IMG/VR virus record: IMGVR_UViG_3300028887_000103
Span: 1 to 64,000 of that record
Source of the DNA: a virus
Lineage: Duplodnaviria; Caudoviricetes
DNA length: 64,000 bases
Reading direction: 5' to 3' (one strand)
Below the pieces are notes generated by a model. The model did not search any database. It saw only the letters and a program-made list of their open reading frames with translations, and was not told where the DNA came from. Shown here one piece after another: positions 3,064-45,405 of the stretch (positions are counted from its first letter, which is position 1; each line of letters starts with the position of its first letter). Both the position numbers and the translations under genes were made by a program.

Positions 3064-3276
3064 ATGGATGATGAGAGGTTAATCGCTATCAGATGTCCCG
3101 CTATGGTTTACGATAAGAAAAATGACAAACTAATAAAATGTAACAAACTCTGTCTTAAAGTATTCCCAGGTTCATCTGGTGAAGTGATGTGTCGAGGCTG
3201 TAAACGAAAATTCAGATTTTATGTTGACAGTCAGGCGAAAAGCATACTAAGCGTGAAAGCAAAGGAAATCAAATAA
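3064..3276 (+). CDS. Small zinc-finger protein (Com-like)
   Basis: IRCP...CNKLC...CRGCK cysteine pattern; SD AAAGGAG before ATG 3064. Confidence 0.55.
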   Translation: MDDERLIAIRCPAMVYDKKNDKLIKCNKLCLKVFPGSSGEVMCRGCKRKFRFYVDSQAKSILSVKAKEIK

Positions 3277-31471: not shown

Positions 31472-32485
31472 TTATACCATATTACGAGGCTTTATTAACT
31501 GCCAGATTTGCTTATTGAGGGCTTCATCGCCTCTTTTTTTCAGCGTGAAAATTAACGACCTCATCTCTTTTGATAAAGAATTATCTAGGGCTATGTCCTT
31601 GTCAGACAAGTGCTTTCTAGGCTCATACTCGTTCTTTACGGCAAGGAAAATCAGCGAGTGGTTATATTGTAGTTCGTCTTCCCACACTTCCATCTGACGC
31701 ATAAATTCGTCTGGGATATCTAAATCTTGAATTCGTTGACCACTGGATAGGAGTTCCCACACCCTCTTTTTTGTGCAATCGGACAGTAGTCTGTGGTGGT
31801 TAATAAAGTATTGAGTCTTGATTTTAACTCGTTCAAAAGTCTTCAAGTCTTGTGCGACCACCCCTTCCACTTTTTGCTTTAAGTATTCTTTAGCCTCTGC
31901 CAATGATAATTCTTTAGCGATAGGAAATGGGCATTCTTCGTCTGGAATAATTTCGTTGAAGTTCTCATCTCTTATGGCCCAGCAAACTAACTTTGGCACT
32001 GGGTGTTTAGTTAGAATGATTGCTTCGTCACCTGGAAAGTTCTGCAAAAGTTCACAGAAATAAGTATAATTCGGGGTCATCTTTAGTAAGATTTCGTCTG
32101 TGAGGAACTTGTCCACAGCATCAATATACTGGTTTTTGAAACTCCCTCTAGAAGTGACAATCAGTCCCCAATCAGAGTCTAGTTTGATTGAGATATAATA
32201 ACCATCTAGTTTTTCGGAAATTCTAGCGTTCATCAAGTTGATTTCGGCGGCTAGAGGCTCTCCTTGGTTAAAAAACTTTTCAGGGCATCTAATGACAATC
32301 TTATAATTACTGTCTAATACTAAACCCCTTGTCTGTCTAGTAATCTTGTTCCAGTTGCCTTCGAACTGGGTTTTTTGGGAGTAGTTATAGATTGACAATG
32401 GTAATCTTGGGTGGTCAACCTTGCGAATATAGCCATCATCTACTAAAGAAATCAAATCGTCAATGTCTTGTTCACTTAAATTCAT
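31472..32485 (-). CDS. rnl1: T4 Rnl1-like RNA ligase
   Basis: HPRLPLSIYNYS..TRGLVLD..PEKFFN; nucleotidyltransferase motif I EKLDG; EGVV; RVKIK. Confidence 0.88.
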   Translation of the reverse strand: MNLSEQDIDDLISLVDDGYIRKVDHPRLPLSIYNYSQKTQFEGNWNKITRQTRGLVLDSNYKIVIRCPEKFFNQGEPLAAEINLMNARISEKLDGYYISIKLDSDWGLIVTSRGSFKNQYIDAVDKFLTDEILLKMTPNYTYFCELLQNFPGDEAIILTKHPVPKLVCWAIRDENFNEIIPDEECPFPIAKELSLAEAKEYLKQKVEGVVAQDLKTFERVKIKTQYFINHHRLLSDCTKKRVWELLSSGQRIQDLDIPDEFMRQMEVWEDELQYNHSLIFLAVKNEYEPRKHLSDKDIALDNSLSKEMRSLIFTLKKRGDEALNKQIWQLIKPRNMV

Positions 32486-32552: not shown

Positions 32553-33326
32553 CTACCACGGAAGTTCTTTGCCGTCAAGAGAGATTTTGACAAAATTCTT
32601 GTCCTCAAGGGTAAGCAAAGAGTCGTCACCATACGGGGAATAATCAGAATAGGTAGAGAATGTGTCACAGAAATAGATTTCTTCATCGTAGTTATTATAG
32701 AAGGTTACGGTCTGGTGTGGAGTATGTCCTACAATCTGAATTACTGGAAACCAATCTGCTATGAGTTCAACTGTGTCTGCCCAGAGTGGACTAGGGTCTT
32801 GGTGTCCTCCACGAGCATAACCTACATCGCCAAGTCCGAAGAAAGCGTCTTCACAATTTTCTTGTTTACGGTGATGAAAGGCATAGTTGGTTACTTTCAT
32901 AATATCCCACGGGCTTTCAAAAGGTTTTTGAAAATACTTATTCAACCACGATTTAGTGAATCCTGCGTGAGAACAGATAAAGGAACGGTCTTTGGGAACG
33001 AAAGCGATGTCAAAAAGTTCTTCGTATTTGGTAAAGAGTGGAGATATTAACTGTGAAGTCATAAAGTTATAACCAGAACAAGCAAAAGGTTTGCCAAACC
33101 ATTCAGATAAGTCGTGGTTACCTAGCAGAAGAATAACTTTGCCTGGGTTTGATAATTTGAAATCAATCAGATTTTCTAATAACTGTTTAGAGTATTCTGG
33201 TGCTGACATCCAATCGTCAACATAATCGCCAAGGAAAATAACTTTGTCGTATCCTTCGGACAATTCTTTAACCCGTTCTAGTATCCCGTTCTTGGTGTGT
33301 AAATCCCCTACGAATAAGTATTTCAT
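32553..33326 (-). CDS. Calcineurin-like metallophosphoesterase
   Basis: GDLH, FLGDYVD, LLGNHD, SHAG, VGHT motifs. Confidence 0.9.
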   Translation of the reverse strand: MKYLFVGDLHTKNGILERVKELSEGYDKVIFLGDYVDDWMSAPEYSKQLLENLIDFKLSNPGKVILLLGNHDLSEWFGKPFACSGYNFMTSQLISPLFTKYEELFDIAFVPKDRSFICSHAGFTKSWLNKYFQKPFESPWDIMKVTNYAFHHRKQENCEDAFFGLGDVGYARGGHQDPSPLWADTVELIADWFPVIQIVGHTPHQTVTFYNNYDEEIYFCDTFSTYSDYSPYGDDSLLTLEDKNFVKISLDGKELPW

Positions 33327-38838: not shown

Positions 38839-39056
38839 AACAGGAGGAATGGCCAATGACAAAATTGCCAGAATATTATAGTGTCCCGATACAATGCGTT
38901 AACTGTGGCAGTAAATTCATAGATGACGACCCAGGGTATTATTCTGACCCAGGAGTTATCGGGGAAGCAATAAATATAAAGAAAGGAATGAAAATCTGCG
39001 AAGTTGAATGTCCACTCTGCGGATGTCTAACACTAGCGAGATGGAGGGTAAGATGA
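38835..39056 (+). CDS. Zinc-ribbon protein
   Basis: CVNCG..CPLCGC. Confidence 0.55.
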   Translation: MKQEEWPMTKLPEYYSVPIQCVNCGSKFIDDDPGYYSDPGVIGEAINIKKGMKICEVECPLCGCLTLARWRVR

Positions 39057-39865
39057 GTCAAAGAGATAAAGCAAAAGTTATTCTGGAAGAATTGAAAAAC
39101 AGAGGATTCCATCCAGAGGGAGTTAAATATCAGGGTGGCTACTTCCTGTTTGATTTCGGAAAAGATATGGTCGTTCATTTTCGGCTAAAAGAGTGTAAAG
39201 GTTGGCTGTTTGCTATCTGGTGGAATGTAGATGACAAAAATCAATTCGACTTCTTTACTCAATTTGAAAAGAATATAGATAAGTTCAAGCCGACTGCTTC
39301 TAATTTTGTCCAAACCGATATATCTTATGCGAAAAAGGATGCCCGCTCTATCGTAGATTTCTATCTTCTGCCGATAATAAAGTTTATTCGGAATCATAAA
39401 TATGTGGCTTGGTGCTATGACAATTACTATTACCTCAAGAGTTGGCAGTATATGACAGGTTTCGAGGCTTGGCGTGAATATACAAAATACAGTCTGAAAT
39501 ATTACAGGTTGAAACCGTTGGTAGAAAAAAGAATGGTAAAGCGATGGAAGAAGATTATGCGAGGGATTTGCGACCAAGAACTAGAGAATTATGCCATCGT
39601 GGATGATAATGTTGGCGGGGTAATCTGCTATCCGAGATTTCATATTGTCTGCGAAAACTTTAAGGAGGAAAAAGTAGAGAAAGGTTACTGGACACTTGAG
39701 ATAGATGAACAAGATGTCAAACTAAAAAAGAAGATTGATAGGTTCAACAAAAAACTAAAAAGAATGCAGAAGAGATTCGGGCATATGTTTGATGTGGATG
39801 AAATCAGAACTCATATCGGAGTTGTCGTAAATGGAAAGAGACTTGTAAAACAGAAGAAGAAATAG
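39053..39865 (+). CDS. Hypothetical protein
   Basis: SD GGAGG before ATG 39053; 270 codons open. Confidence 0.7.
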   Translation: MSQRDKAKVILEELKNRGFHPEGVKYQGGYFLFDFGKDMVVHFRLKECKGWLFAIWWNVDDKNQFDFFTQFEKNIDKFKPTASNFVQTDISYAKKDARSIVDFYLLPIIKFIRNHKYVAWCYDNYYYLKSWQYMTGFEAWREYTKYSLKYYRLKPLVEKRMVKRWKKIMRGICDQELENYAIVDDNVGGVICYPRFHIVCENFKEEKVEKGYWTLEIDEQDVKLKKKIDRFNKKLKRMQKRFGHMFDVDEIRTHIGVVVNGKRLVKQKKK

Positions 39866-39968
39866 TATAATTAAATTGAGGACAGTGGTTCATTGGTTCT
39901 GTCCTCCAGTTTAGGTGCATTACCGGGGCTAGTCAATTCCTTTCGGCTAGTCCCGTCAAGGAGAAAAG

Positions 39969-40130
39969 ATGATTACAATAGGTATAATGATAATCGGTTT
40001 AGGAATAGGACTTATCTGCTTTGCTTTACTCCTCATCGGTGGGTTTGTCGGAATCTGTCTAATACCAGTTGCTATAGTTCTGTGTCTATTGAAGGCTCTG
40101 TGGAAAATGACTTTTGACAAAGAAAACTGA
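39969..40130 (+). CDS. 53-aa hydrophobic membrane protein (not in supplied ORF track)
   Basis: SD AAGGAG; MITIGIMIIGLGIGLICFALLLIGGFVGICLIPVAIVLCLLKALWKMTFDKEN. Confidence 0.65.
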   Translation: MITIGIMIIGLGIGLICFALLLIGGFVGICLIPVAIVLCLLKALWKMTFDKEN

Positions 40131-40142
40131 CCTTGCTATAAT
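40114..40142 (+). promoter_or_regulatory. Consensus promoter for ncRNA-A/tRNA
   Basis: TTGACA-N17-TATAAT with TG extension. Confidence 0.8.
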
Positions 40143-40149
40143 TAAAATA

Positions 40150-40446
40150 CGCATAACAAACAAGCCCATTAAAAAGTGAGTAGGTTGATAATATCGGTTT
40201 GATGATGCCGAGGTAGCCAAAAATACTGTCGTTAAGAAGATACGAGATGGGTGGATGGTGACGGCGAAGAATATCACCACGAGTCCCCAATCCAGAGGTT
40301 TAGAAGAGAGATTCGCCAAGAATATAGTTCGGTGACGCTAAACCAAACCGTGAGAACGGAGTTGCAAGGACAGTAACCTTACAAGCCGAACCAACCAATA
40401 CTAATTGCCAGCACGGGTGAAGTTATGTTTGATTGAAATGCTGGCA
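40150..40446 (+). ncRNA. Candidate structured ncRNA-A with kissing loops
   Basis: Nested stems 40194-40200/40383-40389, 40224-40230/40369-40375, 40256-40261/40274-40279, 40297-40303/40338-40344; loop-loop GGCGAA/TTCGCC. Confidence 0.6.
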
Positions 40447-40449
40447 TAT

Positions 40450-40525
40450 TGTGGGGAGATGCGGAAGTCGCATACTGGCCTCATAAACCAGTTGTTAGTA
40501 GGAGCGTTACCTGCCCCCACAACCA
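40450..40525 (+). tRNA. tRNA with CAU anticodon (elongator Met or Ile2), atypical T-loop
   Basis: 76 nt; acceptor TGTGGGG/CCCCACA plus A-CCA; D stem ATGC/GCAT; anticodon loop CTCATAA; T stem GTAGG/CCTGC. Confidence 0.8.
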
Positions 40526-40527
40526 TA

Positions 40528-40557
40528 TTGACAATGAAAATATGAATGTGCTATAAT
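40528..40557 (+). promoter_or_regulatory. Promoter for ncRNA-B
   Basis: TTGACA-N18-TATAAT with TG extension. Confidence 0.7.
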
Positions 40558-40564
40558 GTAAGCA

Positions 40565-40840
40565 GATTCGGACTCGTGCGTCGTGCACGAAGAAAAAGCA
40601 CCTTTCAGTTGTGGCAGTAGTAGCATAATAAACCCCCCAAGACGGTTAATGCTGAATGTAAATCCGAGAGGAATATATCTGGGAGGCGATAAGCCGAAGG
40701 ATGAACTGCAGAAATGTTTACATTTGAAAATCGGGCTTAAAATATATGGAAAATGCAACACGAAGCCTTGGAGCCCGTCAATGTAGAGACACTGGCGAGA
40801 GTTAGTTCCTACCTACTGTCATAACTGAAGGGTGTTTTTT
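40565..40840 (+). ncRNA. Candidate structured ncRNA-B with 28-bp closing stem and internal pseudoknot
   Basis: 40593-40620 pairs fully with 40813-40840 (four G-U pairs); crossing stems 40655-40663/40716-40724 and 40690-40697/40731-40739. Confidence 0.65.
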
Positions 40841-40858
40841 GTGTTATAATTTGGATGA

Positions 40859-40965
40859 GGGGCTGACAGGATTAGAATCTTAAAGAATGTTACGGACGAA
40901 AAAGGGTTTGAAAATAAGTCTGGAGTACTTAAGATGACGTGGTTTCGACACCACCAGCTCCACCA
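40859..40965 (+). ncRNA. Miniature tmRNA-like RNA (alanine tRNA-like domain, mRNA-like domain nearly absent)
   Basis: GGGGCTG/CAGCTCC-ACCA with G3:U70; tmRNA-type D-loop ACAGGATTAGA; P2 ATCTTAA/TTAAGAT; GAC linker; T-arm GTGGT-TTCGAC-ACCAC; TG-TATAAT at 40843-40850. Confidence 0.8.
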
Positions 40966-40978
40966 GGAGGAGAGGAAT

Positions 40979-41542
40979 ATGGGAAGACCGAAGATTAGAG
41001 AGGATTGTTCTGTTACTGGTTGTGACAAGCCCTATTTTGGTAGAGGCTACTGTGTTATGCATTATGCTCGTTGGAAGAAAAATGGAGATACTGGACCAAT
41101 AGGAAAGTATGGACAAAGGAGAAAAGTTTTTAGGACAGAAGACCACCCACTTTATGAAACTTATAGAGGTATGGTAAAAAGATGTTGTTTGAAGACGCAT
41201 ATTCACTATAAAGATTATGGCGGTAGGGGTATTAAGGTTTGCGATAGATGGTTAGGTAAAAATGGGTTTGATAATTTTATTGAAGATATGGGTGAAAAGC
41301 CAAGCGGATACAGTTTGGATAGAATAGACAATGATGGTAATTATTGCCCAGAAAATTGTCGTTGGGCTACCCATATAGAACAGGCTAGCAACAAACGTAA
41401 CAATAAAATTATTACATATAAAGGTGAAACCCATACAGCGGCAGAGTGGAGTAGGATTCTAGGTATAAGACCAGGCACATTTTCTGAACGAAGAAGGGCA
41501 TATCCTAACGACAAGGACAAATGGTTTAAGGAGTTGGTATGA
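40979..41542 (+). CDS. HNH-type endonuclease with N-terminal Zn finger
   Basis: [16 protein letters not shown]; [12 protein letters not shown]; [20 protein letters not shown]; SD GGAGG right after the tmRNA-like CCA. Confidence 0.85.
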
Positions 41543-43458: not shown

Positions 43459-43870
43459 CCCTATGTATTTTTGGCCTCTGGTAATGAGGTGGAAAAATAG
43501 GGTTTGCCCAAGAATAGTGATAAAAGGTAATTCAGAAGAAGAGTTTTTGGAACAAATTTCTAAACATCCAGAAATGGATTTTGTTATCGAGGATAGCGAA
43601 AGTCTAGTTGCTCCAAGGTTCAACAACCTAGTGTATAGGTGGCGAAATAAGATGTCGTATAAGAGCTGGGTTGACGAGTGGGCTAGGGTAGATTATTTAG
43701 TCTGTGATGAAAATGACAAAGATTACTGGATGCAGGCTGGGCTTTGCGGAGTAAAGGTATTCTTTAGCTGGGAGAAGTTCGTAGAGGCTTTGAATAGAGG
43801 TGAGATTCTGGTCTTGAGTAAGATAGATAGAATTGACCAATGGGAAATGACAAAAAACCTCTTGACATAA
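43424..43870 (+). CDS. Hypothetical protein
   Basis: Coupled ORF. Confidence 0.55.
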   Translation: MEQECQSWKSLDPMYFWPLVMRWKNRVCPRIVIKGNSEEEFLEQISKHPEMDFVIEDSESLVAPRFNNLVYRWRNKMSYKSWVDEWARVDYLVCDENDKDYWMQAGLCGVKVFFSWEKFVEALNRGEILVLSKIDRIDQWEMTKNLLT

Positions 43871-43897
43871 CTAACTAGGTGTGCTACTTTAAAACTA

Positions 43898-44524
43898 ATG
43901 GTTACGATAATTACTTTAGTTAGCAATCGGAAAGGATTTGAAAATCTGAAGAGAAATCTAGTCAGTTTTGAATCTGATTGGAAACTTGGGGTGGATATTC
44001 TTTGTATTGTTTCAGACTATGACTTATATCTAGAATGTCGGAATTTCTTGCACGAAAATGTAGATAGAGGGGAATGTCTAGTTGTCTTTGACCAAGATGC
44101 TACCTTAAAGTCTGGAAAAGAATATCTGGATACCAAGAATGAATATGTGTTCTTACTTGCCGAGAATGTCAGAGTTCCGAGTGGTGGTATCACTAAACTA
44201 TACAAAAACTATCTTGAAAAACCACAGGCAGGGTTCATCACAGGGGAGTGGAACCAATTCCCGACTGTTCGCTGGGTCAAAGATATCTATGGTGCTCCGA
44301 AGTATATCTATTCAAATGAGCCGTCACCTTATGGGTTAAGAATGGATATAGATGTGGCAGAAGTCCACGGCATAATGACAAAAACTAGTCTATACAAAGA
44401 ATTGTTCTGTGCAGAGGATTTAGATGGTTACGGTAGTCATAGTTTCGGGATACGATTAAGAAGGCAAGGATACAAAAATTATATTAACACAGGGGTAGAA
44501 TACAAATATGGAGGTAACGAGTGA
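43898..44524 (+). CDS. Divergent GT-A (family 2-like) glycosyltransferase
   Basis: TIITLVSNR..LKRNL; EYVFLLAENV (DxD position degenerate); FGIRLRRQGYKNYINTGV. Confidence 0.5.
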   Translation: MVTIITLVSNRKGFENLKRNLVSFESDWKLGVDILCIVSDYDLYLECRNFLHENVDRGECLVVFDQDATLKSGKEYLDTKNEYVFLLAENVRVPSGGITKLYKNYLEKPQAGFITGEWNQFPTVRWVKDIYGAPKYIYSNEPSPYGLRMDIDVAEVHGIMTKTSLYKELFCAEDLDGYGSHSFGIRLRRQGYKNYINTGVEYKYGGNE

Positions 44525-45405
44525 AAATAATTATGTTGAAGGGGTTGCCTGCGAGTGGAAAATCTACTTGGGCTAGGGAGCGTCAAAAGGAAGGTGGCAA
44601 TTATCTAGTCATAAGCAAAGATGAAATTCGTAAGATGTTCGGCGGGTATGCCCCCAAGCGAGAGAAAGATGTCTTAAGAGTAAGAAATGAACTGATAAAA
44701 CTGGGCATTAAACTACGCAAGAATGTAATAGTGGATGATACCAACTTGAACATCAAGCACGAAAGATATATCAGACAATTGGCAAATGAACTAGGGGTGA
44801 AGTTTGAAATCAACGATGACTTTATGGAAGTTCCACCAGAAGAATGTATAAAACGAGATTTACACCGTGGAGAAAAGGCCGTCGGTGCTAGCGTGATTTG
44901 GGATATGTATTATAGATGGGTGGCACCAGACCCACAAGTCAATTTAGATGTAAACTTTGACAAACCGAGGTGTGTGATTTGTGATGTCGATGGCACATTG
45001 GCTCTGAATACAGAGGGCAGAAGTTTCTACGATTTGTCCAGAGTTAACGAGGATACGGCTGACCCGTTTGTCTCTTGCGTAGTAGATGCTCTGTATAACT
45101 ATGGCACTGAAATCAATGGGGATAAATACCCTAGCATAATTATCTTGAGTGGAAGGGAAGAAATAAGTAGAGAAGCCACGGAGGGGTGGCTTAAACAATA
45201 TGGTATTCCTTATGACCAAGTGATAATGCGAGAAACTGGGGATAAACGGAGTGATAGTATTGTGAAGCGAGAACTCTATGAAAAATATGTAGAGCCAAAC
45301 TACTGTGTCTTGGGAGTGATAGATGATAGACCTAGCGTCTGTGCTGTCTGGCGTAGTTTAGGCTTAAGAGTTGCTCAAGTTGGTAACCCATATATTGATT
45401 TCTGA
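44521..45405 (+). CDS. pseT: Polynucleotide 5'-kinase/3'-phosphatase (T4 PseT-like)
   Basis: GLPASGKST Walker A; VIVDDTNL; HAD DVDGTL; LSGRE; IDDRP. Confidence 0.92.
   Translation: MKIIMLKGLPASGKSTWARERQKEGGNYLVISKDEIRKMFGGYAPKREKDVLRVRNELIKLGIKLRKNVIVDDTNLNIKHERYIRQLANELGVKFEINDDFMEVPPEECIKRDLHRGEKAVGASVIWDMYYRWVAPDPQVNLDVNFDKPRCVICDVDGTLALNTEGRSFYDLSRVNEDTADPFVSCVVDALYNYGTEINGDKYPSIIILSGREEISREATEGWLKQYGIPYDQVIMRETGDKRSDSIVKRELYEKYVEPNYCVLGVIDDRPSVCAVWRSLGLRVAQVGNPYIDF

Follow-up and report, generated by a model that had tools for sequence, protein, structure and literature searches.

The window analysed here is a stretch of 64,000 nucleotides (nt), positions 1 to 64,000 of IMGVR_UViG_3300028887_000103, an IMG/VR record of a virus of the Caudoviricetes. 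A gene for a miniature transfer-messenger RNA (mini-tmRNA) lies at positions 40859-40965 on the + strand, within a 1.1-kb stretch without genes (39865-40979) that also holds two more structured RNAs. The RNA consists of a tRNA-like domain (TLD) and an extended helix 2 (P2). Its parts are listed below in their order along the strand; several of them had been named in an original prediction made from the sequence alone.

40859..40965, + strand: mini-tmRNA gene of 107 nt, TLD with extended helix 2 and no tag message (recognised by Rfam model RF00023, by model R1 described below and by its fold)
40859..40865, + strand: 5' strand of the acceptor stem, GGGGCUG, which pairs with 40955-40961 (CAGCUCC) in 7 bp that include G3:U70
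40866..40876, + strand: stemless D region ACAGGAUUAGA, which fits the tmRNA consensus GGNUUNGA in alignments to RF00023 and to other mini-tmRNAs
40877..40883, + strand: 5' strand of helix 2 (P2a), AUCUUAA, 7 bp, paired with 40929-40935
40884..40892, + strand: 5' side of the internal loop, AGAAUGUUA, opposite GAGUAC at 40923-40928
40893..40922, + strand: inner hairpin with the stem CGGAC/GUCUG and, at 40898-40917, an A-rich apical loop of 20 nt, GAAAAAGGGUUUGAAAAUAA
40921..40932, + strand: the frame UGG AGU ACU UAA put forward in the original prediction, judged here to be no message
40929..40935, + strand: 3' strand of helix 2 (P2a), UUAAGAU
40936..40938, + strand: GAC linker, a column that is invariant in the alignment of mini-tmRNAs
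40939..40954, + strand: T arm, with a 5-bp stem GUGGU/ACCAC and a 6-nt loop UUCGAC
40955..40965, + strand: 3' strand of the acceptor stem, CAGCUCC, followed by discriminator A73 and an encoded CCA

The minimum-free-energy fold of the RNA reproduces this layout of acceptor, D region, P2, linker and T arm exactly. The acceptor GGGGCTG/CAGCTCC-ACCA with its G3:U70, the stemless D region, the 7-bp P2 and the GAC linker are all where the original prediction had placed them. The T arm it described is also present, although the loop has 6 nt, one fewer than the usual 7 of tmRNA. The GAC linker together with the GA of UUAGA at the end of the D region could make the tandem G.A pairs that are typical of the tmRNA TLD. 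The first P2 pair is A:U in the window RNA and in one other mini-tmRNA (L008), and C:G in nine others. Pseudoknots PK1-PK4 are absent, in agreement with the original prediction, and the 45 nt between the P2 strands fold as a single hairpin; the mRNA-like domain of about 45 nt that it had envisaged exists as an insert of that length, but as a folded, covarying hairpin with a 20-nt loop and not as a single-stranded message. Within the internal loop of helix 2, GAA (40884-40886) faces AGUA (40924-40927), letters which we take to be a candidate bulged-G motif of the loop E or sarcin-ricin type. The same letters are found in one orthologous RNA, L035 (2696-2698 with 2735-2738), and not in another, L036.

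The tmRNA covariance model of Rfam, RF00023, aligns to 40859-40965 from end to end (model positions 1-374, with 288 internal positions deleted) at 37.7 bits and E = 2e-13, and it outscores the tRNA models of the same clan at this site. This was the covariance-model check that the original prediction had proposed. The score is below the 47-bit gathering cut-off, and at the gathering level Rfam reports nothing in the window. ARAGORN, the other program it had proposed, called neither a tRNA nor a tmRNA in the window. A separate covariance model, R1, was built from 12 other phage mini-tmRNAs, with the window RNA left out. When applied to the window and to the whole 80,372-bp genome, R1 matched the mini-tmRNA only, with 54.2 bits and E ~ 7e-11, versus 36-42 bits for real tRNA-Ala genes under the same model. 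Alignment of the window RNA with 10 short mini-tmRNAs gave a 17-pair core in which 96.8% of the cells are paired and 12 of the 17 pairs show compensatory change. Among 500 shuffles none reached the observed percentage paired, the number of cells changed on both sides, the further pair types or the covariation score, and one reached the count of 12 pairs with change on both sides; the first four acceptor pairs were set by the search pattern and carry no weight in this test. These comparisons indicate that the sequence match at 40859-40965 is far beyond chance and bear out the 107-nt miniature tmRNA with a complete alanine-type TLD.

Other identities were considered and rejected. The original prediction had itself named a misread tRNA-Ala and an integration-site remnant as alternatives. 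The former is unlikely, since the RNA has no D stem or anticodon arm, ARAGORN is silent and the tmRNA model wins within its clan. An attP or other integration-site fragment of ssrA is unlikely as well, since both halves of the TLD are present and the genome has no integrase. A split or permuted two-piece tmRNA was also rejected: the acceptor stem closes inside one 107-nt RNA, and no permuted-tmRNA model matches in the region.

Related phage contigs, several with lengths of about 60-80 kb, were reached through homologues of the protein encoded immediately upstream (39053-39865), and two of these relatives carry orthologous RNAs, at L035:2668-2777 (110 nt) and L036:9763-9864 (102 nt). A separate search for related loci with the same protein returned no relative. 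The neighbouring protein is 41-48% identical across the three phages. The three RNAs, segmented by hand and then checked by script, have one architecture in common with zero non-canonical pairs. G3:U70, A73 and the encoded ACCA are fixed in all three, and acceptor pair 5:68 changes from C:G in the window to A:U in L035 and L036. The D region ends in UUAGA in every copy. The P2 helix has 7-9 bp, and its letters are entirely different in each RNA; the inner hairpin has 4-5 bp, with stem letters that vary while the pairing stays, and the T stem keeps 5 bp with differing letters. The apical loop is exactly 20 nt in all three, A-rich and alike (GAAAAAGGGUUUGAAAAUAA, AAAAACGGCUUUGAAAAAAA and GUAAACGGCUAAAGAAGAAA). 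A counterpart of the internal loop is present in L035 (GAAGCAUA / GAGUA) and absent from L036. The linker, GAC in the window, reads CAC and GAC in the orthologues, and the T loop (GGCAGUU/A) and the GG of the D region are off consensus in L035 and L036, leaving the window copy as the most canonical. The mini-tmRNA is absent from the fetched flanks of the related phages L027-L030, L033 and L041-L046. The pattern of substitution, with the alanine identity set and CCA invariant, indicates that the mini-tmRNA is under selection across related phages.

The original prediction had read a resume site followed by TGG AGT ACT TAA in the insert, and from it a tiny Ala-Trp-Ser-Thr (A-W-S-T) tag that would spare phage proteins from proteolysis. 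The letters GAAAAUAAGUC UGG AGU ACU UAA are present in the window RNA, and the upstream AAAAUAAGUC had been likened to the E. coli resume context. Read in the homologous frame, neither L035 nor L036 has a stop, and no stop-bearing frame is common to the three RNAs. The supposed -1 triplet and resume codon sit in the 3' strand of the inner-hairpin stem, which is held by compensatory changes, and the letters of the frame fall in the paired 3' strands of this hairpin and of P2. The putative stop is ~7 nt before the T arm, where it would have little room to reach the decoding centre. Since the stop is not conserved, the codons lie in covarying stems and the stop is so close to the T arm, the tiny-tag reading is unsupported, and the comparison indicates that the RNA encodes no conserved tag. 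A working mini-tmRNA that adds A-W-S-T is hardly credible.

The immediate flanks of the mini-tmRNA hold a promoter element and a gene.

40842..40850, + strand: extended -10 box TGTTATAAT (inside TGTGTTATAAT), 8 nt 5' of G1, recognised from the sequence
40966..41542, + strand: GGAGGAG ribosome-binding site right after CCA, then an HNH endonuclease gene with its ATG at 40979 (PHROG HNH families, E = 6e-51)

The promoter claimed for the RNA in the original prediction is in part confirmed: the extended -10 box is there, but no good -35 was found for the mini-tmRNA, and a -35/-10 consensus scan omits the site. Boxes of the type TGNTATAAT occur 18 times in the window versus 3.5 expected, nearly all on the + strand, and none of 100 shuffles reached 18; to judge from this enrichment, the box type is a promoter signature of the phage. 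No terminator was found between the mini-tmRNA and the HNH gene, so their co-transcription is likely. A ribosome-binding site follows CCA in all three phages, and the gene behind it differs: HNH in the window, an unrelated HNH_3 in L035 and a 77-aa gene in L036. The two HNH genes (window 40979-41542 and L035:2798-3301) have no BLASTP similarity. Since two unrelated HNH genes abut the CCA in two phages, the 3' flank of the mini-tmRNA is suggested to be a repeated landing site for homing endonucleases.

The two other structured RNAs of the gene-free stretch lie upstream of the mini-tmRNA and are called non-coding RNA (ncRNA) A and B.

40114..40450, + strand: ncRNA-A, an RNA of ~300 nt behind a perfect TTGACA-17-TATAAT promoter
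40528..40845, + strand: ncRNA-B, with a perfect TTGACA-18-TATAAT promoter, an RNA of ~280 nt, a very long closing helix and a fold z of -6.4

Perfect TTGACA-N16-18-TATAAT promoters occur four times in the window (28840-28812 on the - strand, 40114, 40528 and 46774), and two of them drive ncRNA-A and ncRNA-B. Neither RNA matches an Rfam family. ncRNA-A is kept at 69-82% identity in L031, L032, L034, L035 and L036, with compensatory change in 17 of 49 predicted pairs, and ncRNA-B is kept in L031, L034, L035 and L036, with such change in 28 of 71. In relatives a tRNA, mostly Met-CAU, stands within 1-3 nt after ncRNA-A; the window has none there. The gene order in relatives is ncRNA-A, the abutting tRNA, ncRNA-B and the mini-tmRNA. 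The mini-tmRNA starts ~18 nt after the end of ncRNA-B in the window, and one gene lies between the two in L035 and L036. Wherever ncRNA-B can be seen together with the flank downstream of it, which is so in three phages, the mini-tmRNA is present; relatives without ncRNA-B lack it. Predicted duplexes of the 20-nt loop with ncRNA-A or ncRNA-B in the three phages fell at different sites in each, and shuffled loops often equalled them. The idea that ncRNA-B supplies the message of a split tmRNA was rejected for now, as ncRNA-B has no tmRNA model match and no obvious conserved tag-like frame.

The whole viral record is 80,372 bp long with a CheckV completeness of 100%, and its gene content is that of a phage, with siphovirus-type tail genes including Dit, a CHAP lysin and a terminase-side structural module. 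The look of its promoters and ribosome-binding sites suggests that the host is probably Gram-positive. The same phage is present in two further assemblies, ERZ27257203 and SRR9008933. No close cultured relative was found: blastn of the mini-tmRNA region and the surrounding 10 kb against cultured phages gave no match, and neither did blastn of the L035 orthologue. The genome contains no tyrosine or serine recombinase or integrase, and no gene for SmpB, RF-1/ArfB or Pth. It does encode proteins for the handling of RNA ends, as follows.

31472..32485 (- strand), 32553..33326 (- strand) and 44521..45405 (+ strand): T4 Rnl1-like RNA ligase, calcineurin-like phosphoesterase and a polynucleotide kinase-phosphatase (PNKP) with a HAD domain

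The three together are likely to be an RNA-repair set against tRNA-cutting host defences. A pair of RNA ligase and PNKP is of the type that phages deploy against anticodon nucleases.

A survey of homologues, as the original prediction had proposed, was carried out by pattern scans and yielded ~20 further mini-tmRNAs, nearly all on viral contigs. A loose short-TLD pattern run on 2.9 million viral contigs gave 13 loci (11 distinct sequences, L003-L015) of 78-89 nt. A near-identical pattern run on 596 Gb of bacterial genomes gave only 2 loci, one of them doubtful; the allowed inner gap was 35-65 bases in the viral scan and 37-67 in the bacterial one. This viral bias counts in favour of the main interpretation given below. 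The scan patterns themselves demanded GGGG and CTCCACCA. Patterns tied closely to the window sequence found no match on viral contigs. Rfam placed 9 of 10 short mini-tmRNAs at 50-78 bits, L005 not being listed, and ARAGORN missed nine of the same ten, calling L003 only as a 343-nt tmRNA with the same 3' base. The mini-tmRNAs sit on contigs of true phages, which are of unrelated kinds and have terminase genes, GroES or an IscB-like gene in the flanks. These phages share no proteins with the window save a distant polymerase subunit in L001 and L002, and a search with the polymerase exonuclease subunit found only these two distant loci, both without a mini-tmRNA.

A longer pattern gave one locus, L016:1332-1460 (129 nt), on a 52.8-kb AT-rich viral contig. 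This RNA is of intermediate size, with a longer inner domain that may contain a pseudoknot. A metagenome scan for the 6-nt T-loop spacing returned four RNAs of 113-114 nt with the T loop UUCGAU.

L022:420-533 (- strand), L023:3451-3563, L024:1672-1785 (- strand) and L025:1988-2101: a separate mini-tmRNA family with two inner hairpins and an A-rich loop (AAAGGCCC..GCAAAAA)

All four contain a readable short frame (GCA AAA ACA CGG ... stop or GGA AAA AUA CGG ... stop), and its variable letters are accounted for by compensatory stem changes. As separate observations, L007 carries a Pistol ribozyme at 3130-3201 (- strand), ~330 nt from its mini-tmRNA, and L011 a HEARO RNA at 794-1003 on the same contig as its mini-tmRNA. 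At L020:461-542, where an 8.5-kb contig from a metagenome-assembled Patescibacteria genome ends, lies a TLD-only tmRNA of 82 nt; the contig may be viral, or the RNA may be the cell's own reduced ssrA. The match L021, from a Solibacteraceae genome, was set aside as doubtful with 21.8 bits under R1, and matches in the phages Bobbio and CcrBL9 proved to be ordinary tRNA-Ala genes. A match to the 3' half of a mini-tmRNA in the cultured Tunturiibacter phage Tunturi_4 was actually part of a full permuted tmRNA. This two-piece tmRNA (L038, PP885687.1 ~43530-44293; RF04321, 79 bits) is unannotated and begins ~5 nt after a gene annotated as 'RF-1 domain peptide chain release factor', so that the two look like a ribosome-rescue pair.

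The interpretation that we favour, with confidence that is evenly divided, is that the phage carries a gene for a tag-less, TLD-only tmRNA derivative that would compete with host tmRNA. Transcription would start from the extended -10 box, at G1 or shortly before it; alternatively, RNase P would cut the RNA from a longer transcript. Host alanyl-tRNA synthetase would charge the mini-tmRNA with alanine, and the RNA would bind SmpB and EF-Tu of the host; because the phage has no SmpB, RF-1/ArfB or Pth of its own, it would have to use host factors. Competition with host tmRNA for SmpB and stalled ribosomes is proposed because the mini-tmRNA offers no resume codon. Nascent chains, those of the phage included, would then escape the degradation tag, and the tmRNA-dependent decay of broken mRNAs would also be damped. 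By analogy with mycobacteriophage DS6A, which provides a precedent, a decoy of this sort, one of the two functions that the original prediction had offered, is plausible. Several observations nevertheless weigh against it. RF00023 scores the RNA under the Rfam cut-off, and one nucleotide is missing from the T loop. The drift of the T loop and of the D-region GG in L035 and L036 implies that ribosome entry may not be the conserved activity, and the loss of this consensus points to a possible sequestration off the ribosome instead. The alanine identity set and CCA are strictly kept though pure titration of SmpB needs neither, and the kept charging determinants suggest that the RNA may act on ribosomes once it is charged. 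Neither the decoy model nor the rescue model considered next accounts for the conserved 20-nt loop. A wider role, in which ncRNA-A, the tRNA, ncRNA-B and the mini-tmRNA would act together on translation in the infected cell, to reprogramme it or to protect it, for instance by tag-less rescue or anti-defence with the 20-nt loop docking to a partner, is conceivable but doubtful.

Productive rescue without a tag is a rather unlikely alternative, and comes next after the decoy in likelihood. In such a scheme alanyl-mini-tmRNA and SmpB would enter stalled ribosomes and accept the nascent chain, and a host ArfB-type hydrolase, or drop-off and Pth, would free the ribosome; ribosomes stranded on degraded host mRNAs would thereby be recycled for phage translation, their products untagged. 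Selection on charging is argued from the conservation of G3:U70, A73 and the encoded CCA, which are present without exception in the three orthologues and the mini-tmRNAs recovered, though the patterns required GGGG and CTCCACCA. A rescue role is assumed for the tmRNAs without a coding sequence (CDS) in jakobid mitochondria and some plastids (PMC11915505), and phages do carry rescue parts, as the permuted tmRNA of Tunturi_4 beside its RF-1-domain gene exemplifies. The absence of an RF-1/ArfB or Pth gene from the window phage speaks against rescue, as does the loss of the T-loop and D-loop consensus in L035 and L036, and the sole experiment cited in the tmRNA database papers is one of inhibition, not rescue (PMC4131195). 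Another unlikely reading, one to be ranked below rescue, takes the RNA as a tRNA-like element within the RNA module, either a signal for RNase P or 3'-end processing that parts ncRNA-B from the mRNA behind it, or a decoy that draws host nucleases directed at tRNA. It would fit the start of the mini-tmRNA ~18 nt past ncRNA-B, the ribosome-binding site after CCA in the three phages, the tRNA within 1-3 nt of ncRNA-A in relatives and the PNKP and Rnl1-like ligase of the phage; but a gene separates ncRNA-B from the mini-tmRNA in L035 and L036, G3:U70, the 20-nt loop and the D-region and linker motifs specific to tmRNA would all be superfluous in a processing signal, and for anticodon nucleases the mini-tmRNA has no anticodon loop to offer. 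That the RNA has no function and is a decaying remnant, either of a tmRNA of the phage that was once full-length or of an attachment site in ssrA, is highly improbable. The sub-threshold Rfam score, the short T loop and the orthologues still further off consensus would agree with decay, but many double changes have left the stems perfectly paired in three phages with a neighbour protein of only 41-48% identity, CCA is encoded, the extended -10 box is present, both halves of the TLD remain and no tyrosine or serine recombinase accompanies them.

Trans-translation is essential or important in many bacteria. Should the RNA indeed block or bypass tagging, it would represent a compact inhibitor of natural origin for this process, and also a natural test of the smallest RNA able to engage SmpB and stalled ribosomes. 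Mini-tmRNAs are far commoner on viral contigs than the literature consulted implies, in which tag-less tmRNA mimics of phages have one brief published precedent, DS6A, mentioned in passing in tmRNA database papers.

Those papers class the DS6A tmRNA as 'TLD only' (tmID 11587; PMC4131195; PMC11915505). They state that a similar molecule strongly inhibits tmRNA in E. coli, whether chargeable or not, perhaps via titration of SmpB (PMC4131195, PMC11915505, citing Mao et al. 2009). The DS6A RNA was located at JN698994 28478-28560; it is 83 nt long, scores 43.2 bits and is unannotated in the record. Like the window RNA it is phage-encoded and consists of a tmRNA TLD closed by a hairpin, with G3:U70 and neither tag frame nor pseudoknots, and both RNAs are unannotated and below the Rfam cut-off (43.2 versus 37.7 bits). 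In the DS6A RNA the hairpin is short, the T loop has 7 nt and the CCA is incompletely encoded (ACTA). The window RNA, at 107 nt, differs in its long, irregular helix 2, in the conserved apical loop of 20 nt, in a T loop of 6 nt and in the CCA, which is encoded. The phages are unrelated, the window RNA stands in an ncRNA module, and past the TLD consensus no similarity of the two RNAs could be detected.

The one-piece bacterial tmRNA (RF00023) shares with the window RNA G3:U70, A73, CCA, the stemless D region, GAC, the T arm and the beginning of helix 2; the 288 model positions that are gone from the window RNA correspond to the pseudoknots, resume codon, tag frame and helix 5. The viral RNAs L003-L016 and L022-L025 share the core with the window RNA, and L022-L025 resemble it further in the 6-nt T loop and in the composition of an A-rich loop. 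Most of these viral RNAs are shorter and, at 50-78 bits, above the Rfam cut-off. The CDS-less tmRNAs of jakobid mitochondria and of some plastids (Mallomonadaceae), the latter added in the 2025 update of the database, likewise consist only of the tRNA-like part (PMC11915505). These organellar forms differ in that their SmpB is nucleus-encoded, some are permuted, they are non-viral and they cannot compete with a resident full-length tmRNA. The window RNA is thus of a known kind, the 'TLD only' kind of DS6A, and what is new here is the long helix with its conserved 20-nt loop and the conserved RNA gene module in which it stands.

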